A DNA stretch of 35,623 nucleotides from Candidatus Krumholzibacteriota bacterium (lineage in GTDB: Bacteria > Krumholzibacteriota > Krumholzibacteriia > LZORAL124-64-63), in contig JBDLKA010000030.1 in assembly GCA_039714075.1 (NCBI GenBank), positions 1 through 35,623 on the forward strand, in the 5' to 3' direction. Under the pieces are notes generated by a model. The model saw only the letters and a list, made by a program, of their open reading frames with translations. It was not told the DNA's origin and ran no database searches. Made by a program: the position numbers and the translations under genes. Of the stretch, positions 3-30,113 are shown one piece after another. How positions within the stretch are numbered: position 1 is the first letter of the stretch; every line of letters starts with the position of its first letter.

Positions 3-3000
3 GTCATTCCCACTCCCCTGCTGCTGGGCGCTCCGGTCACGACGAGTGACTACATGGCGTTCCCCAAGGGCGGCGTGGATTCCCGCGTCGGCGCCCCGGT
101 GATCGACGGCTCCGGCGGCCCGGACAACTTCGGTTACCGCTGGACCGACAGCAACGATCCCTTCGGGCCGACCTTCGCCTGGATGGACATCTCGGGCATG
201 GGCTCGGTGGCCATGTCGTCGGGTGACGACGTTACCGCCGGACCGTTTGCCATCGGTTTCGATTTCCCCTTCTATGGTGGGGATTTCAACCAGTTCAACG
301 TGTGTTCGAACGGGTTCATCAGCCTGACGACGGGCGCCACGGACTACAACAACCAGCCGTTGCCCTCGCCCGGCGCGCCGAGCCATCTCATCGCCCCGTT
401 CTGGGACGATCTGATTGTCGACGCCGGGACTGTCTACTACTACAACGACGGTTCCCGGATGATCGTACAGTGGGAAGGCGTTTCCCACTACGGCAGCGGC
501 GGACCCTACTCGTTCCAGGCCCTCATCTATCCTGACGGGACCATCGAGTACCAGTACAACACGATGGGTGTTCCGACAGATGAGTGCACCGTGGGTATCC
601 AGAACGGCGGCGGGACCGACGGTCTGGGTGTGGCCTTCAACACCGCCTACGTGGCCGACGGCCTGGCCGTGCAGATCCGCGCCATGCCCCAGTGGCTTTC
701 CGTGGCGCCTGCCGACGGCACCGTCTGGGCCCCGGGCAGCACCGACCTGGATGTGACCTTCGACGCCACCGGCCTGGTCGGCGGCACCTATGACGGGATC
801 ATCCGCGTCATCAGCAACGATCCGGACGAAGGCGAATACGAAGTTCCCGTGCAGCTGGTCGTGACCGGCGCGCCGGACATTTCCGTCACTCCGCTGTCCC
901 ATGACTTCGGCGATCTGTTCCTGGGCGCCACGGCCCAGACGACCGTCATGGTCCGGAACATCGGCACGGATGTCCTGAACGTTTCCGGCATCACTTCGGG
1001 TGATCCGGCGATCTTCGCCATCGACGTCTCCTCGGCGATCCTGCCCCCGGGCGGGAGCCAGGCCGTGACCGTAACCTTCACGCCGGCCATGGCGCAGTAC
1101 TACAGTACCATGCTGACGATCACCAGCGACGACGTCGACGAGCCGTCGGTGATGGTCGATCTGGCCGGGACGGGCCTCGAACCCCCCGACTTCGACGTGA
1201 CGCCGACCTCCCTGGTCAGCAATCTTTACACCGGGGAATCCGAGAGCCAGGAGCTGCTCCTGACCAACTCCGGCGGCGCCGATTTCGAGTTCAACCTGAG
1301 CGTCGACTTCCATGCCGACGTGACGGTCCATGAATATGTCGAAGTGGGCAAGGAAAGCATCGACGCCCGTATCGGCGATCCGGTGCTGCTGGGTTCCGGC
1401 GGTCCGGATATCTACGGTTACCGCTGGGTCGACAACAACGATCCGGGCGGACCGACCTACAACTTCACCGATATCTCGACCACCGGAACGCCGGTGTTCT
1501 CGGGAACGGCGGATGACACGAATGAAGGTCCGTTCCCGATCGGCTTCGGCTTCAACTTCTACGGAACCACCTTCAACGAGTTCAACGTGTGCTCGAACGG
1601 CTTCATCAGCTTCACTTCGACGAGCACTTCGTACTCCAACCAGCTGCTGCCCAACAGCGGCGCGCCGGAGAACCTGATCGCGCCCTTCTGGGATGATCTG
1701 CGCGTCAACACCAGCACCGGCGCCAACGTGTTCTACGAATACGACGGCTCCAGGCTGATCGTGCAGTACCACCGGGTGCCGGCGTATTACGCCACCGGTG
1801 AGCACACCTTCCAGGTGATTCTCTACCCGGACGGCACGATTCTCTACCAGTACGAAACGATGGACAGCACCGATCTGCAGCTGTGCACCGTCGGCATCCA
1901 GAACGGGACGAAGGACGACGGTCTGACCGTGGCCTTCAACACCCCGTACGTGGCCGACGGCCTGGCCGTGCGTTTCCAGGCGTTCCCCGAGTGGTTGACC
2001 GTCAACCCGCAGTCGGGTGTCGTGCCTCCCGGCGGTTCGCTGCCTGTCGCGGCCAACTTCAACGCCGCCGGCATGTTCGGTGGCCAGTATCTGGCCGACA
2101 TCGTGATCGACAGTAATGATCCCGCGGTTCCCACGCTTCCGGTCCCGGCGACATTGAACGTCACCGGCGCCCCGGATATGGCGTTGTCGCCCGAGTCCTT
2201 CGACTTCGGCGTCAACTTCGTCGGTACGCCGACCCTGCAGAACCTGGTGATCAACAACCTCGGGACCGATGATCTGGTCATTTCGTCGGTCAGCATCGAT
2301 AATGCTGACTTCAATACCTCGCTGACTGCTCCAGCGACCCTGGGTGCCACGGAGACCCTGGTCGTCACGGTGGGCTTCAACGCCTCGGCTGTGGGAGCCC
2401 AGAGCGGGGTGCTGACCATTGTCAGCAACGATCCGTCAACTCCGACCTTCGAAATTCCCCTGGCGGGTGAAGGCGTCCTGCCGCCGGCCGCATCGGTGGA
2501 TCCGACGGCCTTGGCCTCGGACCTGTTCACCGGGGAATCCGAAAACCAGACCGTCACCTTGTCCAACACGGGTGACAGCGACCTGAACTTCACCGCCCAG
2601 ACCCTGCTGGGTGCGGCGGAGGTCGTGGTTCACGCTGCTCTGGATCTCGGCAAGGAGGAAGTGGACCCGCGTCCGGGTATCCTGGGTTCGGGCGGTCCCG
2701 ATATCTACGGCTATCGCTGGAAGGACAGCGATGAGCCTGACGGACCGATCTTCGACTGGGTCGACATCAGCGGGACCGGTACTCCGGCCTTCACCAGCTA
2801 CTCGGACGACCGGAACTCCGGTCCGTTTGAAATCGGTTTCGCGTTCCCGTTCTACGGAACGCCGTTCTCCGAATTCCGGGTTTGCTCAAACGGTTGGATT
2901 AGTTTCACCAGCACTTCGACGGACCTGTCCAACGGCCCGCTGCCGGGCACCGGGGCTCCCGAGAATCTGCTGGCGATGTTCCACGACGACCTGAAGGTCG

Positions 3001-5696
3001 ACCCCACCGGTGTCGGCAGCAACGTCTACTACCAGAATGACGGCGCCAAGCTGATCATCCAGTACGACGGCGTCATGCGCTACGGATCGGGCGGGCCCTA
3101 CACGTTCCAGGCCCACCTGTATCCCACAGGCGCAATCTACTACTACTACCTGTCCATGCAGGGGAGTCGTCTGGACGAAGCCACCATCGGCATCCAGAAC
3201 GCCACCCGGGATGACGGGTTGACGGTGGTCTACAACGACGTCTACGTGCACGACAATCTGGCCATCCGGATTGCCCCGGTCAGCGACTGGCTGGTTGTCA
3301 GCCCGAACGCCGGCACCGTGCCCGCGGGCGGCAGCATGCCCCTGGACGTGACCTTCAGCGCTGCCGGAATGTTCGGCGGAGTCTATGAAGGCGCCGTGCT
3401 GATCACCAACAACGATCCGGTCAACGGCCTGATCGAAGTGCCCGCCGTCATGACGGTCACCGGAGTTCCCGTGGCGGCGGTCGATCCCGCGGCCCTGGAC
3501 TTCGGCGAGGTCTTCATCGGCTACGACAATCAACTGCAGATGACTGTCAGCAACGCCGGGACGGATGTCCTGATGGTCACGGGCATCACGGCGGGATCGG
3601 GTGACTACTCGGCTTCCCCGTCGGTGTTCGACCTGGATCCGTTCGCGGAGCAAGTGGTCACGGTGACCTTCGCGCCCAGCGCCGTAGGCGTGGTCGCCTC
3701 CGATCTGCAGATCGTCAGCAACGACGCCAATTCGCCGCTGATCGTTTCGGTCACGGGCGTCGGCGTCGTCCCGCCGGACGCCAACTGGACACCTGATCCG
3801 GTGATCGGTGTCGCCATGCCTGGCGGAACCGACGTCGAAACGTTGACCCTGTGCAACGACGGCGGCAGCGACCTGATCTGGAGCCTGAACGGTTCCGAGA
3901 GCATGGCCGCGAACATGGTCCAGTATCCTGAAGTCCTGTTCGGCAAGGAGGAAGAGGACACCCGACCCGGCATCCTGGGTTCCGGTGGTCCCGACACCTT
4001 CGGCCACACCTGGATCGACAGCGATGATCCGGGCGGACCGGCCTTCATGTGGACGGACATCAGCGGCACCGGTACGCCGATCTTCGGCCAGTACGAGGAC
4101 GACGACAACTACGGTCCGCAGCCGATCGGTTTCGACTTCGGCTTCTACGGCAATACGTTCAGCGAGTTCTACGTGTGTTCGAACGGCTGGCTCAGCTTCA
4201 CGAACAGCACCCTGCGTACGTATTCCAACCAGCCGTTGCCCAACGGCGGGTCGAGCACCCCGGAAAACCTGATCGCCCCGTTCTGGGACGACATGGTTGT
4301 CGATCCGATCACCCGCGGTCTGGAAGTCTACTACCAGTACGACGGCGAGAAGCTGATCGTCCAGTACGACATCCGTCGTATCGCGACCTTCAACCCGCCG
4401 TACTACAGCTTCCAGGTGCTGCTGTATCCCAACGGCGACATCATGTTCCAGTACGACACCCTGGGGACCAGCACCACCAGCGCCACCATCGGTATCCAGA
4501 ACGGTACCAAGGATGACGGGCTGATGATGGTCTACAACGATTCGTACGTGCACGAGGACATGGCGATCCTGATCACTTCGGCGCCAGGCTGGCTGTCGGT
4601 CGGCACCGAGAGCGGCGTCCTGCCTCCGGGCGAGTGCGTCGATATCGACGTGGTTATGGATGCCTCGGCTCTCGAAGCGGGCGACTACTTCGGGACGTTG
4701 ACGATGACCAGCAACGATCCGGCCGACCCGACCAAGACCATGGACGTGATCTTCCACGTCGGTACGGTTATGGCGGCCGATTCGGACATCGAACCCAACA
4801 CCCTGAACCTCGCCAACAACGGCAAGTACATGGCCTGCTACGTCGAGTTGCCGGTCGAGTACGACCCCGCGGACGTGGTGCTTGAAACCGTCATGTTCAA
4901 CGGCGTGGTCCTGGCCGACGACAAGTTCTTCGTCTACGACGGGGACTTCAACGGCAACGGTATCCCCGACCTGATGTTCAAGTTCTCCCGTTCGGAGATC
5001 GAGGGCATCCTCGAGGAGGGTGAAGAGGTCGAAGTGACGGTCACCGGTGAAATCAGGGACACGATCTATTTCGTGGCCACCGATATCATCCGGGTGATCA
5101 ACCCGACCATGGTTGCGCCCAACGGCGGCGAGTTTGTCGCGGCAGGTGCTCCCTTCCAGCTGGTCTGGAACAACCCGTCCGAATGGAACGTGGACCACTC
5201 AGACCTGGTCTACACCATTGACGGCGGCGAGAACTGGATCGAGATCGCCTCGGGCGTCACGGGCGACACCTACGCCTGGACCACTCCGGTTCTTGCTTCG
5301 GATCAGGTCAAGGTCCGGGTGTTCGTCTACGACAACCAGGGAATGCTGGGCTTCGACTCCAGCGACGAGTTCTTCACCTTGAGCAGCGGGGCCACTCCGG
5401 TGGAACCGAGCATGCCTCTGGTCTACGCTTTGGGGCAGAACTTCCCCAATCCGTTCAACCCGAAGACCGAAATCCGGTTCGAACTGCCGCACGCGAAGAA
5501 TACGCGGTTGCGCATCTATGACCTCAGGGGACGCCTGGTCAAGGACCTCGTCTCCGGTCACATGGATGCCGGTCGTCACAGCGTCGTGTGGATGGGACGG
5601 GATAACGGCGGACGGCAGGTCGCGTCCGGCGTGTACTACTACAAGATCGATTCCGGGACATTCAGCGAAGTCAAGCGGATGACCCTGGTCAAATAG
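3..5696 (+). CDS. Giant secreted/surface repeat protein, 5'-truncated. At least 4 NIDO-like modules alternate with Ig-like (ASH/choice-of-anchor D/BACON-like) domains; C-terminal FlgD-Ig (T9SS-like) domain
   Basis: Frame is open from the window start (VIPTPLLLGAPVTTSDYM...). GSGGPD..GY.W.D motifs start at 108, 1392, 2685 and 3978, followed by xCSNG(F/W)xS and mostly IAPFWDD. Repeated SNDP Ig strands. C-terminus NFPNPFNPKTEIRF...IYDLRGRLV...GVYYY...MTLVK. Confidence 0.85.
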   Translation, partial: VIPTPLLLGAPVTTSDYMAFPKGGVDSRVGAPVIDGSGGPDNFGYRWTDSNDPFGPTFAWMDISGMGSVAMSSGDDVTAGPFAIGFDFPFYGGDFNQFNVCSNGFISLTTGATDYNNQPLPSPGAPSHLIAPFWDDLIVDAGTVYYYNDGSRMIVQWEGVSHYGSGGPYSFQALIYPDGTIEYQYNTMGVPTDECTVGIQNGGGTDGLGVAFNTAYVADGLAVQIRAMPQWLSVAPADGTVWAPGSTDLDVTFDATGLVGGTYDGIIRVISNDPDEGEYEVPVQLVVTGAPDISVTPLSHDFGDLFLGATAQTTVMVRNIGTDVLNVSGITSGDPAIFAIDVSSAILPPGGSQAVTVTFTPAMAQYYSTMLTITSDDVDEPSVMVDLAGTGLEPPDFDVTPTSLVSNLYTGESESQELLLTNSGGADFEFNLSVDFHADVTVHEYVEVGKESIDARIGDPVLLGSGGPDIYGYRWVDNNDPGGPTYNFTDISTTGTPVFSGTADDTNEGPFPIGFGFNFYGTTFNEFNVCSNGFISFTSTSTSYSNQLLPNSGAPENLIAPFWDDLRVNTSTGANVFYEYDGSRLIVQYHRVPAYYATGEHTFQVILYPDGTILYQYETMDSTDLQLCTVGIQNGTKDDGLTVAFNTPYVADGLAVRFQAFPEWLTVNPQSGVVPPGGSLPVAANFNAAGMFGGQYLADIVIDSNDPAVPTLPVPATLNVTGAPDMALSPESFDFGVNFVGTPTLQNLVINNLGTDDLVISSVSIDNADFNTSLTAPATLGATETLVVTVGFNASAVGAQSGVLTIVSNDPSTPTFEIPLAGEGVLPPAASVDPTALASDLFTGESENQTVTLSNTGDSDLNFTAQTLLGAAEVVVHAALDLGKEEVDPRPGILGSGGPDIYGYRWKDSDEPDGPIFDWVDISGTGTPAFTSYSDDRNSGPFEIGFAFPFYGTPFSEFRVCSNGWISFTSTSTDLSNGPLPGTGAPENLLAMFHDDLKVDPTGVGSNVYYQNDGAKLIIQYDGVMRYGSGGPYTFQAHLYPTGAIYYYYLSMQGSRLDEATIGIQNATRDDGLTVVYNDVYVHDNLAIRIAPVSDWLVVSPNAGTVPAGGSMPLDVTFSAAGMFGGVYEGAVLITNNDPVNGLIEVPAVMTVTGVPVAAVDPAALDFGEVFIGYDNQLQMTVSNAGTDVLMVTGITAGSGDYSASPSVFDLDPFAEQVVTVTFAPSAVGVVASDLQIVSNDANSPLIVSVTGVGVVPPDANWTPDPVIGVAMPGGTDVETLTLCNDGGSDLIWSLNGSESMAANMVQYPEVLFGKEEEDTRPGILGSGGPDTFGHTWIDSDDPGGPAFMWTDISGTGTPIFGQYEDDDNYGPQPIGFDFGFYGNTFSEFYVCSNGWLSFTNSTLRTYSNQPLPNGGSSTPENLIAPFWDDMVVDPITRGLEVYYQYDGEKLIVQYDIRRIATFNPPYYSFQVLLYPNGDIMFQYDTLGTSTTSATIGIQNGTKDDGLMMVYNDSYVHEDMAILITSAPGWLSVGTESGVLPPGECVDIDVVMDASALEAGDYFGTLTMTSNDPADPTKTMDVIFHVGTVMAADSDIEPNTLNLANNGKYMACYVELPVEYDPADVVLETVMFNGVVLADDKFFVYDGDFNGNGIPDLMFKFSRSEIEGILEEGEEVEVTVTGEIRDTIYFVATDIIRVINPTMVAPNGGEFVAAGAPFQLVWNNPSEWNVDHSDLVYTIDGGENWIEIASGVTGDTYAWTTPVLASDQVKVRVFVYDNQGMLGFDSSDEFFTLSSGATPVEPSMPLVYALGQNFPNPFNPKTEIRFELPHAKNTRLRIYDLRGRLVKDLVSGHMDAGRHSVVWMGRDNGGRQVASGVYYYKIDSGTFSEVKRMTLVK

Positions 5697-14051: not shown

Positions 14052-14167
14052 CATTGCAAGTAATCAAGGCTGGAGCCGTCAGGGGGGATCCGAATAATCC
14101 GCAGGGCCGAAGGCCTGAGGACATTTCGGATCCCCCCTGACGGCTCCAGCCTTGATTACTTCCAATG
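14052..14167. repeat. Long palindrome with 37-bp perfect inverted repeat arms (MITE/REP-like or large hairpin)
   Basis: 14058-14094 AAGTAATCAAGGCTGGAGCCGTCAGGGGGGATCCGAA is the exact reverse complement of 14125-14161. It extends to 43 bp with one mismatch, and the 30-nt centre is itself partly self-complementary. Confidence 0.9.
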
Positions 14168-15547
14168 CGACGAGATGAATTCGTCCACCTCTGGAATGCC
14201 CCCCTGGAAGACAAGGTACCCGTTGTGGGGTTCGCGTTCGGTGGTTTCGCCGTTGACGGGTGTGAGCATGATGCGCTCGACCTCGGCCGGATCGTGGCTT
14301 TGCCCGAGGGCCCAGCCCAGTTTCACGTAGGCCACCTCGGGCAGCATGTTCGCGGCGGGAATCACGCCTTTTTCCATGATCTCGCGGCCGGTTTCGTAGA
14401 CGTACATCTGCACGTAGCCCCACAGGGTCTGCACGGTCATGTACACGTGTACGCCCGCTTCCCGGGCCCGGTCCAGGGCGGGATACAGGGGTTTGTTGAC
14501 GTGGCCGAGGCCCGTGCCGGCAATGACGATCCCCTTGTAGCCGTTGTCCACCAGGGAATCGATGATGTCGGGTTTCATGGACGGGTAGTAATAGACGAGG
14601 GACACCCGATCGTCGAAGACCGCGTTCAGCTTGACCTGGTGGTCGTCGCGCCGCCGGCTGTAGTCCTGCCGGAAGGGGGTCACGCCGGTTTCGTCGATCT
14701 TGCCCAGGGGAATGTCGCTCAGGGTGCGGAAGGTGGAACGGTAGCTCGAGTGCATCTTGCGGACCCGCGTGCCTCGGTGCAGCAGGCCGTACTTGTCGCT
14801 GGTGGGGCCGAACATGCAGACCATCACTTCGGCGATGTCGCTGGTGGCGGCCGTGCGCGTGGAGTTGATCAGGTTGATGGCCGCGTCACTGCTGGGCCGG
14901 TCGCTGCTGCGCTGGCTGCCGACCATGACGATGGGCACCGGCGAATCCTGCAGCATGAAACTCAGGGCTGCGGCGGTGTGGTGCATGGTATCGGTGCCGT
15001 GGCCGACCACGATGCCGGAGACACCCGTTTCGATTTCGGCGGCGATGGCTTCGGCCGTGCCGATCCACTGCTCGGGACCCATGTTCTCGCTGAACACCCC
15101 GTACAGCTTTTCGGTCTCCATGTTGCAGATGTCCGCCAGCTCGGGCACCGATCCGTAAAGCTCTCCGGGACTGAAGGCGGGTATGACCGCACCGGTCCGA
15201 TAGTCCAGCCGGCTGGCGATGGTGCCGCCGGTCCCGAACAGTTTTACCCGCGGTTTTTTGGGGTCGAAGGGGAATTCCTTTTCCGGAATCTGGTAGCTGG
15301 CCACCTTGCGGCCGGTGACGGTTATCTTTTCCACCGTGTTGTGACGGACGCCGATGTTGTAGCCGGTGTCCAATTTGAGCACGATGTGCTCGGCGTCCGC
15401 GGTTTCGCTGCGGGGCAGGATCAAACCGGAAAATTCACCACCGGTGGTGTGCAGGGTGACCTGGCTCCAGACGGGAGAGCTCTGCTTTTGCAGCAGGTCC
15501 AGGGTGGGGGAGCGATAGCCCTTGTAGTCTTCGGATGTGCTGCTCAC
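14156..15547 (-). CDS. gatD: Glutamyl-tRNA(Gln) amidotransferase subunit D (archaeal type)
   Basis: GatD-specific N-terminal domain (GLILPR...HIVLKLDTGYNIGV) plus asparaginase-like motifs GTGGTIASRLDYRTGAV, HGTDTMH, GSQRSSDRPSSD, HRGTRVRKMH, GTGLGH and MLPEVAYVKL.W.LG. GTG start overlaps the gatE TGA; GAGGT RBS. Confidence 0.93.
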   Translation of the reverse strand: MSSTSEDYKGYRSPTLDLLQKQSSPVWSQVTLHTTGGEFSGLILPRSETADAEHIVLKLDTGYNIGVRHNTVEKITVTGRKVASYQIPEKEFPFDPKKPRVKLFGTGGTIASRLDYRTGAVIPAFSPGELYGSVPELADICNMETEKLYGVFSENMGPEQWIGTAEAIAAEIETGVSGIVVGHGTDTMHHTAAALSFMLQDSPVPIVMVGSQRSSDRPSSDAAINLINSTRTAATSDIAEVMVCMFGPTSDKYGLLHRGTRVRKMHSSYRSTFRTLSDIPLGKIDETGVTPFRQDYSRRRDDHQVKLNAVFDDRVSLVYYYPSMKPDIIDSLVDNGYKGIVIAGTGLGHVNKPLYPALDRAREAGVHVYMTVQTLWGYVQMYVYETGREIMEKGVIPAANMLPEVAYVKLGWALGQSHDPAEVERIMLTPVNGETTEREPHNGYLVFQGGIPEVDEFISSHWK

Positions 15548-17457
15548 GATTGTACCTCTTTCACCCAGGCGCGGACGGTCCGTCCCGGAATCCGTCCCCG
15601 CAGATCACCCATCACGTGGCCCATGACGAAGTGTTCCCGCTCCTGGGCGCCGGTCGGGCCGTCATCAGGCAACCGGGACAAATGTTCGTCGAATATCTTC
15701 CGGCCGGCGTCCTCGTCCATGCGGTCGGGAATGCCGTCCTCGCTGTTCCAGACGGCCTCCGGGATGATATCGCCGGACAAAAGGCGCTCGAGGGTTTCGT
15801 CCCACCATGCGCCGGCCGCGGCCAGGCTGGCGGGCCGGGGGCAGGACCGGTCCAGCAGCAGCGAGGCCAGCGCCGCGGGGTTGAGGCCGCCGGCTCCGTC
15901 GAGCTTGTCCGCCATGTGTTTGAACAGGGGCCAGGACCGGTGGCGGCTCAGCCGGCCGGCCAGATCGTCGCCCACGCCCAGCTGCAACAGTTCTTCCTTG
16001 CGTTCCCAGGGCCTTTCCGGCAGGGAGGACCTGATTTTTTCCACGCGGTCGTCTTCCAGACGGATGGGAGGCAGATCGGTGTCGGGATACATGCGGTCGG
16101 CTCCGGGAAGAATCCGCTCGAAGCCGTTGGTGCCGTCGTCCAGGGCCTGCCGGGTTTCCTGGGGGATCCCCAGGGTGGCTTCGCGGGCGCGGATGGCCAC
16201 TTCCTTGACCGCGGTCTCGGCGTCCTGCCTGCGGCCCCACACCACGATCACCGGAACGTCGGGTTCAACCATGCAGACCTTGCTGACCCGGTCCCATTCG
16301 CCGCTGGAAAGCGTGGGCACGTCCTGGGTGGAAAGGGCGAGGTTGGGCAGGTCGTCGATGCAGGCGATGACCCGGATCCGGTCGCTGAACTCCTTCAGGA
16401 ACGAGGTCCGCGGCTGGGTGTGTGCCTGGAGCAGGCCCTGGAAACCGGGCAGGGGGATGGCCAGCACCGAGGCCCCCTTGTCGATGGCCTTCTGGATGAA
16501 TTTGCAGTCGGTGCCCCGCACGATGGGCGTCACGTCATGGCCCTTGTCGCTGATATCCGCGGCGGTCACGCCCCGCTTGGCCAGTTCGGCCTTGATGCCC
16601 ACCAGGGAGCGCTGCCTCAGGGCTTCATTGTGGGTCAATAACGGTATGGCGCGCAGACTGGAGACGCCTTTGATCTCGATGCGCGTCCCCCCTGTCACCG
16701 AGACGTTGACGTCCTGCCGGGCGGCTCCGCTGCCGGTCCGCACCAGGCCGCTGACCCGGCACAGATAGCGCAGGATCTGCCCCACCGCCATGGCTTCGGC
16801 GGGCGTCTTCATGTCCGGGTCGGTCACCGTCTCGATCAGGGGCATGCCCAGGCGGTCGGTCCGGAAGGTGCGCACGTGTCCCTTGTCGCTGACCTCGCGG
16901 CAGGAGTCCTCTTCAATGCTCAACTGGCGGATGTGCACGGTGCGGTCACCGAAGGGGATGTCCCCGTCGGTCCCGATGATGGCGGTCCTCTGGAAGCCCG
17001 TGGGAATGCTGCCGTCCAGGTACTGCTTGCGGGTGATGTGGACCTCGCCCACAACGTTGCACCCCAGCAGCATGGTGATGGCGATGCTCCGGTCCAGGGC
17101 CTGGTCGTTGATTTCGAAAGGGGGCGCGTCATCCATCTCATAGGTGCAGACGGTTTCGCGATCCAGCAGATATATGATTTCCTTGCGGGTCTTGAATTCC
17201 ATCAGGGCGGTGCCGTCGTACTCGCCCATTTCCGACAGGGTGGGGCGCATGTGGCGCAGGATTTCCGCGTGGTGCTCGACGTTGTTGTAGCGGCCGGCGG
17301 GGCAGCGGCAGAAGAGTTTGCGATCGGTGTCGAGCTGCTGGTGCACCTCCAGCCCGCACATGAACCCGATGTCGGCATAGTCGGCGGGGGTCATCTGCCC
17401 GAACAGGGGCAAGGGATTGAGCAGCCAGGGGTCGGAAAGGGCGAATTTGGTGTCCAT
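15544..17457 (-). CDS. gatE: Glutamyl-tRNA(Gln) amidotransferase subunit E (archaeal type)
   Basis: DY..IG..CGLEVHQQLDT.RKLFCRCP, RPTLSEMGE.D, RKQYLDGS..TGFQRT, EEDSCR, DRLGMPLIE and RQDVNVS..GG.RIEIKGV. Has the GAD-like insertion (LPGFQGLL...QP) and GIPQETR.AL.DG....R.LPGADRMYPDTDLPP. ATG 17457 chosen; the exact start is uncertain. Confidence 0.92.
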   Translation of the reverse strand: MDTKFALSDPWLLNPLPLFGQMTPADYADIGFMCGLEVHQQLDTDRKLFCRCPAGRYNNVEHHAEILRHMRPTLSEMGEYDGTALMEFKTRKEIIYLLDRETVCTYEMDDAPPFEINDQALDRSIAITMLLGCNVVGEVHITRKQYLDGSIPTGFQRTAIIGTDGDIPFGDRTVHIRQLSIEEDSCREVSDKGHVRTFRTDRLGMPLIETVTDPDMKTPAEAMAVGQILRYLCRVSGLVRTGSGAARQDVNVSVTGGTRIEIKGVSSLRAIPLLTHNEALRQRSLVGIKAELAKRGVTAADISDKGHDVTPIVRGTDCKFIQKAIDKGASVLAIPLPGFQGLLQAHTQPRTSFLKEFSDRIRVIACIDDLPNLALSTQDVPTLSSGEWDRVSKVCMVEPDVPVIVVWGRRQDAETAVKEVAIRAREATLGIPQETRQALDDGTNGFERILPGADRMYPDTDLPPIRLEDDRVEKIRSSLPERPWERKEELLQLGVGDDLAGRLSRHRSWPLFKHMADKLDGAGGLNPAALASLLLDRSCPRPASLAAAGAWWDETLERLLSGDIIPEAVWNSEDGIPDRMDEDAGRKIFDEHLSRLPDDGPTGAQEREHFVMGHVMGDLRGRIPGRTVRAWVKEVQS

Positions 17458-17600
17458 ATTCACATCCAGTGCTGAAAACGCGTAATCCTCGGTGTGGCCG
17501 CGGGGCCGGCACGCGCCGGAAGGGCAAAGATAGAGATTGGGTTCCGAAAGCTCCAGCAATTGTTGCCCAGGATTATGGCCGCCGGGGTCCACTTAATCGC

Positions 17601-17629
17601 TTGACGCTTTACGGGCACCGGTTTATTGT
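17601..17629 (+). promoter_or_regulatory. sigma70 promoter of rex
   Basis: TTGACG-17 nt-TATTGT. Confidence 0.65.
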
Positions 17630-17633
17630 AGAG

Positions 17634-17651
17634 TTGTGAAAACCGTAACAG
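17634..17651. promoter_or_regulatory. Rex operator 1
   Basis: TTGTGAA-AACC-GTAACAG versus the Rex consensus TTGTGAA-N4-TTCACAA; covers the predicted transcription start. Confidence 0.55.
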
Positions 17652-17674
17652 AATGGGATGTGAGACAGCAATTT

Positions 17675-17692
17675 TGGTTAAAAAATTAACAA
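17675..17692. promoter_or_regulatory. Rex operator 2
   Basis: TGGTTAA-AAAA-TTAACAA, one mismatch to the TTGTTAA-N4-TTAACAA variant, immediately upstream of the rex RBS. Confidence 0.7.
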
Positions 17693-17705
17693 CCAACAGG
17701 AGGAT

Positions 17706-18383
17706 GTGGCCTTGAGGAAGAACAGGAAAAGTTGCGATGTGCCCGATGCCACCATCCACCGTCTTCCCCTGTATCTTGAAAAACTCAAACTGTTGCAGGC
17801 CATCGGAGTAGAAGACGTCTCCAGCCGGCAATTGGCGGAGTCCCTCGATATCAAGGCCAGCCAGTTACGGCATGACTTCCACTATTTCGGAGGCTTTAGC
17901 CGACCCGGACGTCCCTATCAGGTCGAGAAACTGGTTCCCGCCCTGGAAAAGATCATCGGCATTGCCGAGCCGGTGCCGACGGCCATCATCGGCGCGGGGC
18001 ATCTGGGGCAGGCGCTGGCCAACTACCAGAACCTGGATTTGCAGGGGTTCCCGGTGCGCGGCATCTTCGACACCAATCCCAAGGTGATCGGTCTGGAAAT
18101 GCGCGGCCAGCCCGTCAGGGACATGGATGAACTGGAAAAAGTCATCAAGGCAGAAAATATCAGGATTGCGATCCTGACCGTGCCGTCCGCCCATGCCCAG
18201 GCCGTGACCGACCGCCTGGTCGATGCCGGCATCATCGGTATCTTCAACTTCGCACCGACGGACCTGAAGGTACCCGAGGGGATCGCCGTGCGGAACGAGC
18301 GGCTGGCCGTCGGAATCATGTCGTTGAGCTTCAAGGTGAAGTGTATCCTGCAAAGCCAGGAAGAGAGTATCTCGGAAGTCTGA
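17706..18383 (+). CDS. rex: Redox-sensing transcriptional repressor Rex
   Basis: VPDATIHRLPLY, VSS.QLA, QLRHDF.YFG, IIGAGHLGQAL, AILTVP...AQ and GIFNFAP. TTG at 17712 is better spaced from the AGGAGG RBS than GTG 17706. Confidence 0.93.
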   Translation: MALRKNRKSCDVPDATIHRLPLYLEKLKLLQAIGVEDVSSRQLAESLDIKASQLRHDFHYFGGFSRPGRPYQVEKLVPALEKIIGIAEPVPTAIIGAGHLGQALANYQNLDLQGFPVRGIFDTNPKVIGLEMRGQPVRDMDELEKVIKAENIRIAILTVPSAHAQAVTDRLVDAGIIGIFNFAPTDLKVPEGIAVRNERLAVGIMSLSFKVKCILQSQEESISEV

Positions 18384-18415: not shown

Positions 18416-19426
18416 TCACCACCGGATCAGATTCGCCCCCCAGGTAAACCCGGATCCGAAAGCCACGGTGACCAGCAGGTCGCCTCTTTGCAGACGGTCT
18501 TCCCGCACCGCCTCGGCCAGGGCGATGGGGATGGAAGCGGCCGTGGTGTTGCCGTATTTGGCGATGTTGGAGTACACCCGCTCCGGCGGCAGACCCATGC
18601 GGGCACCCACCGCGTCGGTGATCCGCTGATTGGCCTGATGGGGGATGACCAGGCTCACCTCGTCGATATCCACCCCGCCCTTTTCCAGCACTTCCCGGAT
18701 GGATTCGCAAAAACGGCGCGTGGCGTGCTTGAAGACCATCGATCCGTTCATGAATGGGAAGTGCCGGCCCTGGTCCAGGATCTCGTTGTTGACGCGGCCC
18801 TTGATGGTGGACATGGGGGCTTCGCCGTAGAGTTCCCGGGCGAAGCGGCCCTGGCTGTGCAGAGCGGAGGCAATGACGCCCCGGTCTTCCTCGACCGCCT
18901 GGACGATGGCGGCGCCGGCCCCGTCACCGAACAGGACCGCCAGGTCACGGCCCTCGGTGGACAGGTCCAGGCCGGTGGACTGGATCTCCTGCCCGACGAT
19001 CAGGACGGTCCGGGCGGTGCCGGCCCGGATGAAGCCGTCGGCGGCCGCCAGGGCGTAGACGAACCCGGTGCACTGGTTGCGGATGTCCATGGCCCCGGCC
19101 GTATTCAGTTCCAACAGGTCTTCGATGAAAACCCCGTTGCCGGGGAAAAAAACGTCCGGGCTGAGGGTGGCGTAGAGAATCAGGTCGATATCGTTCTTGT
19201 CGATGCCCGCTTCGGCGATGGCCATCCGCGCCGCGGCCGCGCCCATTTCGGCGCCTGTCTCGACAACCTGGCCGTTGTCGTCCATCTCCACCCAGCGGCG
19301 TTCCTTGATACCGCTGCGCTCGGTGATCCACTCGTCCGAAGTGTCCATCCATTGGGTGAGATCATCGTTGGTGATGGTGCGGGCAGGGACATGGAATCCG
19401 GTGCCGATGATGGCCGCGCGGGACAT
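18416..19426 (-). CDS. fabH: 3-oxoacyl-ACP synthase III
   Basis: DTSDEWITERSGIKERR, DIRNQCTGF (Cys), LFGDGAGA, IPHQAN (His), YGNTTAAS (Asn) and AFGSGFTWG. ATG 19426 with GGAG RBS. Confidence 0.93.
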   Translation of the reverse strand: MSRAAIIGTGFHVPARTITNDDLTQWMDTSDEWITERSGIKERRWVEMDDNGQVVETGAEMGAAAARMAIAEAGIDKNDIDLILYATLSPDVFFPGNGVFIEDLLELNTAGAMDIRNQCTGFVYALAAADGFIRAGTARTVLIVGQEIQSTGLDLSTEGRDLAVLFGDGAGAAIVQAVEEDRGVIASALHSQGRFARELYGEAPMSTIKGRVNNEILDQGRHFPFMNGSMVFKHATRRFCESIREVLEKGGVDIDEVSLVIPHQANQRITDAVGARMGLPPERVYSNIAKYGNTTAASIPIALAEAVREDRLQRGDLLVTVAFGSGFTWGANLIRW

Positions 19427-19476
19427 GGGCAACTCCAATCAACCTGTTTTGGGACTATTCCTGGACGGATGCCGGG

Positions 19477-20118
19477 CTAACGATGTGCGGGAATGGCCCC
19501 GGGCATGACTTTCCTGTTCTGCCGGATGAAGGCCTCGGCCTGGGTCCGGGATTTGAAATATCCGATCCTGACCCGGAAGATCAACTTGTCGTCAGAGGTG
19601 TTGCCCACCTTGACCCGGGCGTCGAAACCCCTGGCCTTGAGACGGGCCGCTTCCTTGTCGGCGTTGGCCACTTCGCCGAAGGATCCCGTCTGAACCATGT
19701 ACGGACCGCGGGCCACCGGTTGGATGAGTTGGGGGGCGGGCCGGGTGGCTTTGGGTTTGACGGGCGCCGGTTTGGGGGTCGGGTTGGTGGCGGCGGCCTG
19801 CTGGATCGGTTCTTTGACGACGGGTTTGGCCGCGGTCTGTCCGGTGGGTTTTTCCGGAGTCAGGTTGGTGGTCTGATCCGCGATGTCCACATCGCCGGAG
19901 CGGGGCTCGGTATTTTTCGGCATATTGGTTTCGTTTTCGGGCGCGGTGACGACGGTCTGGTATTCCCCGATTCCGGTGGGCACATCACTGCCCTGATCCC
20001 GGAAAATGAGGACCGCGCCGATGATGCAAACTGCAATGGCCACCCACATGATCCTCGGCAGGCCCCGGCCCCTGCGGGAGCGGCGCATCCTGGATCCGGA
20101 TTTTCTGCTGCTGGTCAT
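19477..20118 (-). CDS. SPOR-domain protein (FtsN/DedD-like architecture)
   Basis: Basic N-terminus, one TM helix, Pro/Thr/Lys-rich linker, then C-terminal YMVQTGSF...NA......L...FRVRIG.F.SR..A. Confidence 0.85.
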   Translation of the reverse strand: MTSSRKSGSRMRRSRRGRGLPRIMWVAIAVCIIGAVLIFRDQGSDVPTGIGEYQTVVTAPENETNMPKNTEPRSGDVDIADQTTNLTPEKPTGQTAAKPVVKEPIQQAAATNPTPKPAPVKPKATRPAPQLIQPVARGPYMVQTGSFGEVANADKEAARLKARGFDARVKVGNTSDDKLIFRVRIGYFKSRTQAEAFIRQNRKVMPGAIPAHR

Positions 20119-21596
20119 GGCTTGCGGTCATCTTTCGCTTTGATGTTCAACGCAGGGTCCGTCCGGTCGGGAATCAACAGGCTGAACAGGACCGTGGCCG
20201 CCAGGGAAACCAGGAACCCCGGGATCATTTCATAGAGCAGGCCGTTCAGGAAGTCGATATTGTACCAGACGACCACCGTGACGGTTCCGGAGATGAACCC
20301 GGCCAGGGCCCCCGCCCGGCTGGCGCCCCGCCAATGAAGCGCCAGAAGCAAGGGAGGTCCGAAGGCCGAACCCAGGCCCGCCCAGGCATAAAGCACCATA
20401 TCGTAGACAAACCTGTCCGCCTGCCATGCAAGAATGAAGCCGATCGCGCCCACTCCCAGGGTCGCCCAACGGCCGAGGGCCACCAGTCTGGCCTGGGGGG
20501 CGTCCGGACTGATCAGGCGCCGGTAGATATCTTCGCTGATCGCGCTGGCGGATGCAAGCAATTGGCTGTCCGCGGTGGACATCATGGCGGCTATGGCCCC
20601 GACGATCATCAGCACCGCCAGCCATTCGGGCATGAAAGTTCGTGCCATCAAAGGCATGAGCTGTTCCTGGTCGGCGATCACCTGCCCGGGTCCCATGGCT
20701 TCCGGGCCGAAGTGGGCCAAGCCGGTCAGTCCAATCAGGATGGCTCCGAAAAAGGCGATCAACGCCCAGCCGACGGCGATCAGGCGGCCGGTTTTGACCT
20801 CTTCCGGTGAACTTATGGCCATGAAGCGCAGCACCAGGTGCGGCTGGCCCATGTAGCCCAGCCCGATGCCCAGGCTGCCGATCACGCCGCTGATGGCCGC
20901 CCAGCCGGTGTCCCCGGGCGCCACCTGAAGATAGGTCCCGCCAAAGTCTGCCAGTTTGGCATGAAGTCCCGCCGGTCCGCCCAGTTCCCCCAGCACGGCC
21001 AAAGGCAGAACCGCCAGGGTGACGAGCATGATGACGCCCTGGACCAGGTCGGTCCAGCTGACGGCGAAAAGGCCGCCCGCGGCGGTGTAGAACAGAACCA
21101 GAACCGCGCCGATCCCCATCCCGGCCAGGGGTGGGATGTTGAGGTAGAAATTCAGGACCTTGCCCGCGGCCAGGAACTGGGCGGCGACGTAGAAGGTGAA
21201 GAAAAACAGGATGATCGCCGTGGCGGTGATGCGCAGGGAATGGCCCCGGTCGCCGAAGCGGGCGGCGAAATAGTCGGCCAGGGTCAGGGCGCCCACACGC
21301 TCGGTTTCTTCGCGCAGGCGGCGGGCGACCACGAACCAGGAAAACGCGATGCCCGCGCAGCAGCCGATCCCGACCCAGATGGTGGTCAAACCCGTGGCGA
21401 AAGCCAGTCCGGGCAGGCCGATCAACAGCCAGGCGGATTCACCGCTGGCCCTTTCGCTGAAGGCGGCCACCCAGGGGCCCAGGCGGCGGTCGGCCAAAAG
21501 ATAATCGTCAAGGGTGCGGTTCAGCCGGGCGGCCCGGATTCCGACAACCAGGATGATGAGACTGTAGATGATCAGACCGATGACAAGGGGATTCAC
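20115..21596 (-). CDS. putP: Sodium/proline symporter (SSS family)
   Basis: DYLLADRRLGPWV.A.S..AS.ES.WLL.GLPG, GG..AVSWTD..QG, GLGYMGQPH...RFMA, AAMMSTADSQL and YAWAGLGSAFGP. GTG 21596 with GGAGG RBS. Confidence 0.88.
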   Translation of the reverse strand: MNPLVIGLIIYSLIILVVGIRAARLNRTLDDYLLADRRLGPWVAAFSERASGESAWLLIGLPGLAFATGLTTIWVGIGCCAGIAFSWFVVARRLREETERVGALTLADYFAARFGDRGHSLRITATAIILFFFTFYVAAQFLAAGKVLNFYLNIPPLAGMGIGAVLVLFYTAAGGLFAVSWTDLVQGVIMLVTLAVLPLAVLGELGGPAGLHAKLADFGGTYLQVAPGDTGWAAISGVIGSLGIGLGYMGQPHLVLRFMAISSPEEVKTGRLIAVGWALIAFFGAILIGLTGLAHFGPEAMGPGQVIADQEQLMPLMARTFMPEWLAVLMIVGAIAAMMSTADSQLLASASAISEDIYRRLISPDAPQARLVALGRWATLGVGAIGFILAWQADRFVYDMVLYAWAGLGSAFGPPLLLALHWRGASRAGALAGFISGTVTVVVWYNIDFLNGLLYEMIPGFLVSLAATVLFSLLIPDRTDPALNIKAKDDRKP

Positions 21597-21757
21597 GGAC
21601 CCTCCCTGATGGCGGATGATGAACGTTGGCGTCATATTAATGCCCTGCCGCCCGTTTGATCAACAAGGCAAAACACGGTTGACCTGAAGGGAAATTCCCT
21701 TGCAGGATGATGGTCCAGGTCGAACCGAAAGCCGAATTTCCCCTGAAGGAGAGAGAA

Positions 21758-27467: not shown

Positions 27468-28013
27468 TTACTCCCCGCCCAGGCTTTCCAGAAGATCTTC
27501 GAGAAGATTCCGGACGGCCGCCCGGGTGTAAGGGTCGTCTGGGTGGGACGGTTTCCCCTCGGTTTCGAAGTGCGGCCGCTCTGAATAATCCCTGCCCCAG
27601 CGGGCGTCGGTGTCCCGGACCAGCGAGGTCAAAAGGGATTCGGAACCCAGGGTGACATTCAGGAATTCCTCCAGCGCCCCGATCGGCCGGTCGAAGTGGC
27701 GGGCCAGCAGGGATGGGTCGAGTTTCAGTCTGGCAAGTATGGTGATGACTAGGGTTCCTGAGGGGTCCGCCAGCCGGGCTTCCAGGAGTTGCTTTATCTC
27801 CAGCAGGATCTGTTCTGCCCGTGCCACAGGCGAAGCTCCGGACAGGGAACCGGCAGCTTCACGCCCCACGGCTTCGGCCAGGGTGAATTTTCTTTCCCGC
27901 CGGATTTCGGATTCGGATATTTCCGTAGGCTTCCGCTTGGATTCCGGTTCCTGCCCGGGACCGGGAACATTGTCATTATCTGCACCTGGTTTTTTGGGCA
28001 TTAACGGGGACAT
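27468..28013 (-). CDS. Hypothetical protein
   Basis: 181-aa ORF filling the gap, co-directional with the TylF gene. Start uncertain; no family recognised. Confidence 0.6.
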   Translation of the reverse strand: MSPLMPKKPGADNDNVPGPGQEPESKRKPTEISESEIRRERKFTLAEAVGREAAGSLSGASPVARAEQILLEIKQLLEARLADPSGTLVITILARLKLDPSLLARHFDRPIGALEEFLNVTLGSESLLTSLVRDTDARWGRDYSERPHFETEGKPSHPDDPYTRAAVRNLLEDLLESLGGE

Positions 28014-28034
28014 CTCCAGGAATTTATCATCCCA

Positions 28035-28790
28035 TCAACCTGTTTTGATGAAAATGGCATGACCATTGATGTTCTGGACGCAAGTCAGATCCGGATCGGT
28101 TTCCTTTTCATGGACAAGGGTGGCGATTCCACGGGTACTGGGAAACCCGAAATCATCGAAAACGACAATGCCGCCGATGGGCATGCGCGGCCAGACCCAC
28201 TCTAGGGTGTCTTTTCCGGATTGATAGACATCAACGTCGATGTGGCAGAATCTGAAGCTGCGCTCCTCGATTTCACCACCGGTTTCTTCAGGGAAAAGAC
28301 CTTTCAGGATCTTGACCCGCTCGATACCGAGTTCGTCCATCAAGGAGCTGACCACCGGAATGGATGTGTCCGCATGTTCGCCGTCCGAGTAATATTTATC
28401 CTGTTCACCGGATTTCGCGACCCCTTCGAAAGTGTCACAAAGAAAAATATCCGCACTCAAGCCGAGCAGTTGGGACTTTTTCGCCAGCAAACCGCCGGTC
28501 CCGCCACGCCAGGCCCCGATTTCAACGATGTCTCCGTCAAGGTCCTTGGTCTGGGCCAGAAGATGCCAGAGTTCGTAACATCGAAAAAGATCCACCAGGG
28601 TGTTTTCCTGAATGATCCGGTGGCAAGCGAGGAATTCATCGTCCAGCAGCCAGGGACTGTAGGTTGCCCAGGACAAAAGGGTGGAGTCCCGTTCGGGGTC
28701 GAGGCATTTCTCGACAAACTTCGAGCGGGCCTGGAAAAGTGCCGTTTCCACCAGTTTTTTCCCGGATTTGGCGATCTTTTTCTTGTCCAT
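28035..28790 (-). CDS. TylF/MycF-family O-methyltransferase
   Basis: GDIVEIGAWRGG, LCDTFEG, KG.FPE, FCHIDVDVY.S and GGIVVFDDFG. Confidence 0.85.
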   Translation of the reverse strand: MDKKKIAKSGKKLVETALFQARSKFVEKCLDPERDSTLLSWATYSPWLLDDEFLACHRIIQENTLVDLFRCYELWHLLAQTKDLDGDIVEIGAWRGGTGGLLAKKSQLLGLSADIFLCDTFEGVAKSGEQDKYYSDGEHADTSIPVVSSLMDELGIERVKILKGLFPEETGGEIEERSFRFCHIDVDVYQSGKDTLEWVWPRMPIGGIVVFDDFGFPSTRGIATLVHEKETDPDLTCVQNINGHAIFIKTG

Positions 28791-28850
28791 GGCAACCTCA
28801 AAATTCAGGGGCCCCGTGAAGGCCCCTGGAAAAAATACCGGTCTCGGAGT

Positions 28851-29945
28851 CTAACGGAACAATGCCTTAAGGGATCCCCAACTTTCGGTTTCCACGGAAA
28901 CGACATTGTCCGTGCATCCGGCAGCGGGGTTGAATCCAATTAAACCACCTGGTCCGGTTAAACAAGGAGAGAATTGTGAAACCGCGCAATCGTCCCCGGT
29001 CGGTTGGCAGACCATTGAATTGACGTGGGCGTTGTCGGCCGTCCCGATGGGATCACAGGGTCCGATATAATCAATACCGTTATCCCAGAAAATATTGAAC
29101 GAAAAAATCTGGCAATCAACGGCTCTGACAGCGGGCGCTCCTCCGCTATTATGCGCAAAGAGGTTATACTCTGCGATCAATTGAGAACTGCCGCCATCCC
29201 TGATACAAGAGGCTCCGTAGGGGGCCAGGTTCCTGAGGAAGGTATTGTGTCTGAGCTCGCAGGTGGCAACAAAAAGGTCAATGTTGCCGGCGTATGACCC
29301 GGACCGGTTTTCCACAATACGGTTCCACTCGACAACAACACTTGACCTGTTGACGCCGATGACTCCGGCATAATTGGTGCTGGTGTTGTTATTGAAGAAG
29401 TTGTTCGTAATGGTGGCCTGGGCGTATTCAATAACCGTGATGGCCGACGATTTGTAGGAAATGTTTCCGATGAAATCGTTGTCGTGGATATCGGCGGTGG
29501 AATACATCTGGACGGATACTCCAGCACCTTCATAACTGGTATGGTTGTTCAGGAAGATATTGTTGTCGATTTCAATCTCCGTATGGTCATAGACCCTGAC
29601 ACCGCCGCCGATATAACCTCCGCCGTTAGTGAGGGTGAAACCGGAAATCCTGTTCCCTGGACCGCACAAATCTGCACTTATGCACATGTCGCCATTTCCG
29701 TTGATGATGGTGGATCCGGGTCCTGAAGAGCTTATCAACACCACTCCGCCGACCATGGTAATGTTTTCCACATAGGTGCCTGCGTTGACTGTCACCGTGT
29801 CGCCGGACCCCGCGAGATCCAATCCACCCTGGATGGTAAGGGCATCACCAGACCCGCCCTTGTCGACAATGATTACCGCGGCCATCGTGGTGGAAGAAAA
29901 AAGTATCAAGGTGAAAAAGACGAGTATCCCTTTTATTATTTTCAT
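28851..29945 (-). CDS. Secreted right-handed beta-helix repeat protein with C-terminal SWGxxKALFR tail
   Basis: Signal MKIIKGILVFFTLILFSSTTMA; TIQ.GLD.A.SGDTV.V.AGTY.ENI; Asn-ladder repeats (NNIF.NN); ends VSVETESWGSLKALFR. Confidence 0.82.
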   Translation of the reverse strand: MKIIKGILVFFTLILFSSTTMAAVIIVDKGGSGDALTIQGGLDLAGSGDTVTVNAGTYVENITMVGGVVLISSSGPGSTIINGNGDMCISADLCGPGNRISGFTLTNGGGYIGGGVRVYDHTEIEIDNNIFLNNHTSYEGAGVSVQMYSTADIHDNDFIGNISYKSSAITVIEYAQATITNNFFNNNTSTNYAGVIGVNRSSVVVEWNRIVENRSGSYAGNIDLFVATCELRHNTFLRNLAPYGASCIRDGGSSQLIAEYNLFAHNSGGAPAVRAVDCQIFSFNIFWDNGIDYIGPCDPIGTADNAHVNSMVCQPTGDDCAVSQFSPCLTGPGGLIGFNPAAGCTDNVVSVETESWGSLKALFR

Positions 29946-30113
29946 GTCATCTTCCAATCATTCAAATGGAAAATATATGCGAACATTAATGAGTCTACGC
30001 CCAATACAACTGCTTTCCAACAGCAAATTGGATTTCATATTCCGGAAAGTGATTGAAAAGTAAGGAATTGAGAGCTTTTAGATCTCAGATCTGGAAATTC
30101 AGGAGCCGTAGGA

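Follow-up and report, generated by a model that had tools for sequence, protein, structure and literature searches.

The tRNA-dependent amidotransferase GatDE is said to be restricted to Archaea in the accessible parts of PMC2811023 and of a 2022 review (PMC9499178), where it is also argued to have co-evolved with the unusual archaeal tRNA-Gln and to have helped exclude glutaminyl-tRNA synthetase (GlnRS) from Archaea. Here we describe adjacent gatE and gatD genes from a Candidatus Krumholzibacteriota bacterium. They lie on contig JBDLKA010000030.1 (35,623 nucleotides; the window hereafter, meaning this whole stretch), a complete 35.6-kb contig (C30) of a 4.06-Mb metagenome-assembled genome (MAG) with 260 contigs, 92% completeness and 4.3% estimated contamination. 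The window is one ordinary member of a large bacterial variant of GatDE that is annotated in databases and for which we found no discussing paper. What is new here is its pattern of coexistence with GlnRS and asparaginyl-tRNA synthetase (AsnRS), a calibration of the accompanying glutamyl-tRNA synthetase (GluRS) and a changed motif in the tail of GatE. A sequence-only reading of the window had proposed a candidate for an undescribed system, knew of no characterised bacterial GatDE and suspected that similar automated annotations existed elsewhere. The last two points hold: a full-text literature search, with most subscription journals outside its coverage, found no paper on bacterial GatDE, and NCBI and JGI already name such proteins GatE. 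The first holds for the literature found, but the system is not exceptional, its proteins being already named in databases.

The two genes and the features within them are the following.

14156-15547, minus strand: gatD, 463 aa, GTG start; ammonia-donor subunit of the glutaminase/asparaginase type
15544-17457, minus strand: gatE, 637 aa, ATG start; kinase/transamidase and tRNA-binding subunit
15544-15547, minus strand: GTGA shared by the stop codon of gatE and the start codon of gatD, read from the sequence as translational coupling
15574-15603, minus strand: altered GatE tail motif, residues 619-628 (LRGRIPGRTV), located by alignment

Family membership, fold and integrity of the two subunits

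Both genes are full length with intact catalytic motifs, and their coordinates and translations agree with what had been read from the sequence. GatD scored 510.2 bits on TIGR02153 (the gatD_arch equivalog, cut-off 324) and 509.9 bits on NF003217 (cut-off 310), and its Pfam domains follow the order GatD_N (residues 29-77), Asparaginase (100-290) and Asparaginase_C (314-427), scores that are not those of a plain asparaginase. The translation contains TGGT, HGTDT and RKMH, which are catalytic motifs of the asparaginase type. Some 400 residues were aligned with chains 1zq1_A and 2d6f_A (406 and 397 bits), with GTGGTIASR, HGTDTM, QRSSDRPSSDA and RVRKMH retained.

GatE passed the cut-offs of its own family, with 487.3 bits on NF003107 (cut-off 456) and 411 bits on TIGR00134 (cut-off 319.55), and stayed far below those of GatB, for which the best model gave 144.4 bits (cut-off 338) and TIGR00133 gave 132.9 bits (cut-off 314.8). 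The comparison of archaeal-type and GatB profiles proposed earlier thus came out on the side of GatDE. About 470 residues were aligned with the GatE chains of 1ZQ1 and 2D6F (336 and 316 bits), and GLEVHQQ, EEDS, PLIE and RMYPDTD are all found in the translation. When 55 GatE sequences from Bacteria and Archaea were aligned, 55 columns were invariant, including E37, H39, E182, E183 and the GLEVHQQ, EEDS and RMYPDTD regions. The equivalog match was restricted to profile positions 3-487 of 622 (up to 503 with the other equivalog profile). Across the related families, the match reaches profile position 620 or so in f3, f7, f8 and part of f4 and mostly ends near 490 in f1, the family of the window; the GatE tail therefore appears to have diverged further within the window's family.

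The remaining domains of GatE were visible in its predicted fold only, neither Pfam GAD nor Pfam GatB_Yqey being matched. The AlphaFold2 model (predicted local distance difference test score, pLDDT, 91; predicted template modelling score, pTM, 0.88) has a four-domain fold, and its top structural matches were 2d6f_D, with 505 aligned residues at Z 38.3, and 1zq1_C at Z 34.8. Residues 298-432 correspond to the insertion domain of aspartyl-tRNA synthetase (AspRS) at Z of about 12 (1c0a_A, Z 12.6, 120 residues aligned); this region also aligns with Pyrococcus abyssi GatE, and the domain is a feature that GatB is without. The GAD-like insertion claimed from the sequence is therefore present in the predicted fold but is not recognised by Pfam. 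Residues 578-636 matched YqeY proteins at Z of about 7, a modest level that the structure-search tool rates as common, and GatB chains align with the model up to residue 637.

Both genes are under purifying selection. The ratio of nonsynonymous to synonymous substitution rates (dN/dS) against relatives was 0.04-0.17 for gatD and 0.11-0.34 for gatE, and 0.04-0.18 in the less saturated comparisons. An AGAGG resembling a Shine-Dalgarno sequence is located 8 nt upstream of the gatD GTG start, and the gatE reading frame remains open to 17592, beyond its ATG. Taken as a whole, the window probably encodes a working tRNA-dependent amidotransferase. By homology, GatD would free ammonia from glutamine or asparagine, and GatE would use ATP to activate, and then amidate, the side-chain carboxyl of an acidic amino acid with which a tRNA has been mischarged.

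Charging routes and the candidate substrates of GatDE

The window's genome encodes a full-length GlnRS (705 bits, cut-off 425.8) and an AsnRS (645 bits), as well as one bacterial GluRS and one bacterial AspRS. GatCAB was not found in it: there was no GatB match besides GatE, and the best GatA-like match reached 187 bits (cut-off 481). Neither was a second, archaeal-type AspRS, the extra class II match on contig C167 being a lysyl-tRNA synthetase. Since GlnRS and AsnRS are present, GatDE is not a needed route to Gln-tRNA(Gln).

Among 41 related genomes, matches above cut-off were obtained for GlnRS in 35, for GatB in 22 and for GatD in 30, the latter including 23 of the 24 genomes with a match in the window's family; AsnRS was matched in all 41 (40 above cut-off). 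One asnS match was split into two adjacent pieces (G016:C3:276042-277428), possibly a sequencing error or a broken gene. GatD only was carried by 15 genomes, both amidotransferases by 15, GatB only by seven and neither by four; of these four, G005 and G006 carry GatD fragments at contig ends, and in G018 (95% complete) and G023 (88%) nothing was found. Of the 30 relatives with GatD, 28 also have GlnRS, and the eight genomes of the window's genus have GlnRS in seven cases and GatB in none. We also inspected five GatDE genomes from outside the phylum (two Myxococcota, one of them a complete 6.0-Mb chromosome, and one each from KSB1, Bradymonadales and Zhuqueibacterota). GlnRS and AsnRS were present in 5/5 and GatB in 2/5, and the three genomes with both synthetases and no GatB include the complete Myxococcota chromosome. 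In G036 (97% complete), GatDE and GatCAB are present and GlnRS was not found; an amidotransferase must therefore make Gln-tRNA(Gln) there.

We infer the activity, substrate and physiological role of this GatDE from comparisons of this kind. Our tentative preference is that GatDE may act on Glu-tRNA(Gln) in parallel to GlnRS or as a safeguard, and not as the main route, because GlnRS is present. The likeliest substrate would be Glu-tRNA(Gln), as in Archaea, recognised via the bacterial U1-A72 acceptor pair. The 15 genomes with both GatDE and GatCAB fit separate jobs for the two enzymes, as in Archaea. We also count in favour of this reading that gltX is often near a tRNA-Gln(CUG)/tRNA-Glu(CUC) pair in this class; in the relatives' loci L115-L144 these two tRNA genes stand in tandem, often near gltX and glnS. 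Weighing against it, along with the full-length GlnRS of the window's genome and the company GlnRS keeps with GatD among the relatives, are the acceptor ends of the tRNAs, the type of GluRS and the tail of GatE.

The accessible part of PMC9499178 has archaeal GatDE reading the A1-U72 pair of tRNA-Gln, whereas both tRNA-Gln genes of the window's genome carry U1-A72. The tRNA-Gln(CUG) gene (G000, the window's genome, C164:5209-5282) has an unusual acceptor end, with U1-A72, C3-G70 and discriminator A73, and tRNA-Gln(UUG) is E. coli-like (G3-C70, G73). A split by isoacceptor, with GlnRS serving tRNA-Gln(UUG, G73) and GluRS plus GatDE serving tRNA-Gln(CUG, A73), was considered and rejected: conservation of the A73 tRNA is no weaker in the amidotransferase-free genomes G018 and G023, and the gene adjoins glnS in G013, G016, G019 and G021. 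A tRNA-Sec gene was also present in the window's genome (G000, contig C2:36675-36772).

Changing Arg358 of Thermus thermophilus GluRS to Gln makes the enzyme non-discriminating, as stated in PMC2978374. Arg380 of the window's GluRS aligns with this residue, and Arg occupies the position in all six aligned family genomes with GatDE and GlnRS, the window's included. We calibrated the marker within this class on relatives of known enzyme content, and the outcome is in its favour there. Ser was found at the position in 3/3 genomes with GatCAB only and no GlnRS found, in which a non-discriminating GluRS is therefore required, and Arg, the same as in the window, in G018 and G023, which have GlnRS and in which no amidotransferase was found. 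The marker is weak and not absolute, given that the GluRS chains 3pnv and 2ja2 also carry Arg there; we take these to be the non-discriminating GluRS of Mycobacterium tuberculosis, the organism not being named in the alignment result. The single GluRS of the window's genome thus looks discriminating, and so little Glu-tRNA(Gln) may be made. GluRS is encoded twice in the relatives G026 and G036 (loci L153, L154, L163 and L164). In both, Arg occupies the position in one copy and Asn in the other, a pairing reminiscent of GluRS1 and GluRS2 in other bacteria. In G013 and G016 (L161, L162) a shorter second GluRS adjoins glnS.

In the archaeal enzyme, a motif in the GatE tail has been implicated in the rejection of Asp-tRNA(Asn), according to the accessible text of PMC2811023. 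Among 16 archaeal-side GatE rows the motif reads RG[KR]x[DE]GK; 13 of these have the acidic residue and 12 have the Lys. The bacterial clade mostly has RGR[VI][PA]G[R], with an acidic residue in 7/39 rows, Pro in 18/39, Ala in 9/39 and Lys in 4/39. The window's tail, RGRIPGR, has the archaeal motif altered.

This alteration would suit a possible, though doubtful, alternative in which GatDE stands in for GatCAB. It would have a GatCAB-like specificity for U1-A72 tRNAs and amidate Asp-tRNA(Asn), alone or in addition to Glu-tRNA(Gln), giving a second, tRNA-dependent route to Asn-tRNA(Asn) like that of GatCAB in bacteria with GlnRS and AsnRS. A GatCAB-like job would explain the many genomes in which both synthetases are present and GatDE takes the place of GatCAB. 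The two amidotransferases indeed look interchangeable across the 41 genomes, with only G018 and G023 lacking both despite the near-general presence of AsnRS (41/41) and GlnRS (35/41), and the three outside genomes with both synthetases and no GatB point the same way, as does the discriminating look of GluRS. The part of PMC4206432 that is accessible adds that delta-proteobacteria usually retain GatCAB alongside GlnRS and AsnRS, for Asn-tRNA(Asn). The supply of asparagine speaks on both sides. No AsnB or AsnA gene was detected in the genome of the window or of three genus mates (G002, G003 and G004), and AsnA was present in 2 of the 13 genomes tested. However, AsnB was above cut-off in 30/41 relatives, among them 10 of the 15 with GatD only, and in 4/5 outside genomes; tRNA-dependent synthesis of asparagine is therefore not generally needed. 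Further points against the exchange are that archaeal GatDE is specific for Glu-tRNA(Gln) (accessible part of PMC2811023), that both enzymes are retained in 15 genomes, which argues against full redundancy, that the single AspRS is of bacterial type, with no archaeal-type second one found, and that a tRNA-Asn gene was not assembled in the window's MAG. If this alternative were true, the clade would have re-learned tRNA recognition (U1-A72, altered tail), and its specificity, for asparagine or dual, would be a first for GatDE.

It is improbable that GatDE has instead been repurposed, which the sequence-only reading had named as its alternative, for another aminoacyl-tRNA or for a conditional, redox-regulated role, or that it is a dispensable relic. 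In a genome with GlnRS, AsnRS and a GluRS of the discriminating type, the enzyme meets no evident need. Two family members (G018 and G023) do without any amidotransferase, and within Krumholzibacteriota gatED and rex point away from each other, the spacer between them holding sites that resemble Rex boxes. Strong purifying selection on both genes stands against a relic, and the catalytic and tRNA-binding domains are all retained. A new role would find no constant extra partner gene in the other phyla, and the Rex-like sites, located at the rex promoter, may serve rex alone.

Very unlikely, finally, is the proposal of the sequence-only reading that the lineage relies on GatDE as its sole or main route to Gln-tRNA(Gln). 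Family membership and the failure to find GatCAB in the window's genome or in the eight genomes of its genus are in its favour, but the full-length GlnRS gene here contradicts it. The same holds for the GlnRS of seven of the eight genus genomes, of 28 of the 30 GatD-bearing relatives and of all five outside genomes, and glnS adjoins the tRNA-Gln(CUG) gene in several relatives.

Native context, phylogeny and neighbouring genes

The sequence-only reading had noted the bacterial neighbours rex, fabH, a SPOR gene and putP, and all four were identified at the locus.

17458-17705: gatE-rex intergenic region between divergent genes; a possible control region, context only for gatED
17706-18383, plus strand: rex (NF003995, 226 bits, cut-off 126); conserved neighbour, outside the enzyme
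18416-19438, minus strand: fabH, neighbour gene
19477-20118, minus strand: gene of a SPOR-domain protein, neighbour gene
20115-21635, minus strand: gene of a putP-like symporter, neighbour gene

The contig is native bacterial DNA and not chimeric. Dozens of independent assemblies from Krumholzibacteriota show the arrangement putP-SPOR-fabH-rex / gatE-gatD, and a sample of 201 genomes from across the phylum has gatE above cut-off in 139. Of the best 80 related loci, which were those kept, 63 have a GatD homologue downstream of gatE on the same strand, most of the others being truncated at the end of a contig. A homologue of rex adjoins gatE in 51 of the 80; fabH occurs there in 29, and the SPOR gene likewise in 29. 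No archaeal label occurs among these 80 nearest loci, and the titles of the nearest genome records read Candidatus Krumholzibacteriia or Krumholzibacteriota. Across the bacterial loci compared, identity was 70-95% for GatD and 48-87% for GatE. GC content is even across the gatED region. Contigs from a public run (X1, possibly the source sample) covered 30/30 bins and bridged the gatD/gatE and gatE/rex junctions with zero differences. Contamination with archaeal DNA or a chimeric contig, for which the MAG origin and the 4.3% estimated contamination could be adduced, can be dismissed, as far as sequence data go, on the recurrent gene order, the even GC, the bridged junctions and the bacterial labels. 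One relative's gatE match contains an in-frame TGA (G049:C21:35615-37447), possibly a sequencing error or a broken gene.

To place the protein, 1.84 billion cluster representatives were searched with GatE, which returned 630 matches at E <= 1e-30. These showed a step in score between a first group (45-58% identity, at least 425 bits) and a second (33-42%, at most 385 bits). In trees rooted with the GatB of relatives, in which many rows were unlabelled representatives and from which one misplaced GatB row was dropped, the bacterial-labelled rows and the first group formed a single clade apart from archaeal GatE, and GatE did not group with GatB. Support for this clade was 100 in FastTree, 100 by the Shimodaira-Hasegawa-like approximate likelihood ratio test (SH-aLRT) in a quick IQ-TREE run, and 88 by ultrafast bootstrap (UFBoot) and 100 by SH-aLRT in a careful one. 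Nearest outside it were P0169 (42% identity, 384 bits), which groups with a protein labelled Heimdallarchaeota, and P0176 (41%, 348 bits), whose companions carry Njordarchaeota labels. In the quick tree the Heimdallarchaeota pair and the bacterial clade were sisters (SH-aLRT 98), and the base of the careful tree was a three-way split, so that we claim no donor for bacterial GatE. Within Krumholzibacteriota, GatDE has probably been inherited vertically, which forms part of our preferred explanation. Myxococcota-labelled rows were found in three places of the clade, one of them sister to Krumholzibacteriota at 100/100, which suggests that GatE has moved between bacterial phyla, MAG labels being uncertain.

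The rex-fabH-SPOR block is limited to loci of the Krumholzibacteriota type; none of the 18 loci L094-L111, for the most part of Myxococcota and KSB1 type, contains it. Neither a biosynthetic cluster nor any other constant partner gene of gatED was found in 12 loci from other phyla. Aragorn detected four tRNA genes near gatED in the 80 related loci (650 kb), none of them tRNA-Gln or tRNA-Asn.

Two palindromes resembling Rex boxes are located at 17634-17651 and 17675-17692, with three mismatches each to a Rex-box consensus. They are the sole such matches in the window, for which 0.81 matches are expected by chance, and at least two matches occurred in 17 of 100 shuffles. A promoter-like site (17601-17629, plus strand) is oriented to rex, and the palindromes sit at this rex promoter. 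Autoregulation of rex is a likely explanation for them; we make no claim that Rex controls gatED, the sites being three mismatches off and located at the promoter of rex.

Elsewhere in the window, further bacterial genes include cysK, one resembling cysE, and those of large Ig-repeat proteins with FlgD_ig C-termini. The latter are very large repeat proteins of HYDIN/ASH/DUF1573 type at 54-5696 (plus strand) and 33055-35577 (minus strand), each terminated by FlgD_ig, a C-terminal domain which we take to be a sorting tail like that of the type IX secretion system. GC content falls to 0.50-0.53 at 28001-30000, against about 0.62 elsewhere. This stretch, which may be an acquired island, contains a TylF-like O-methyltransferase (28035-28790, minus strand) and a 368-aa open reading frame without a Pfam match (28851-29957, minus strand).

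Comparison with known amidotransferases

The window shows that GatDE and GlnRS can coexist, a native bacterial GatDE occurring here with GlnRS and a U1-A72 tRNA-Gln. This coexistence bears on scenarios for the origin of both amidotransferases, and it poses the question of which tRNA bacterial GatDE serves, that for Gln, that for Asn or both.

The closest described systems are the archaeal GatDE of Methanothermobacter thermautotrophicus (2D6F) and Pyrococcus abyssi (1ZQ1), which have the same two subunits, domain order and catalytic motifs. In contrast to them, the host here is a bacterium with GlnRS and AsnRS, and its tRNA-Gln has U1-A72 and not A1-U72. The GatE tail reads RGRIPGR in place of RG[KR]x[DE]GK, with Pfam GAD and YqeY undetected, the two genes overlap as a coupled operon, and bacterial GatE forms a clade of its own. 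Asgard GatE (Heimdallarchaeota and Njordarchaeota labels) supplies the nearest sequences outside it, but has Pfam YqeY and GAD domains.

On the bacterial side, the accessible part of PMC4206432 describes GatCAB beside GlnRS and AsnRS in Bdellovibrio bacteriovorus, Deinococcus radiodurans and Thermus thermophilus, that is, in the same setting and with the same chemistry. GatE and GatB have cradle and tail folds in common (Z 27-31). The two enzymes differ in their ammonia donor, which is the asparaginase-type GatD in GatDE and the amidase-type GatA plus GatC in GatCAB. GatE further differs from GatB in its AspRS-like insertion domain, and GatB models score it far under their cut-offs.

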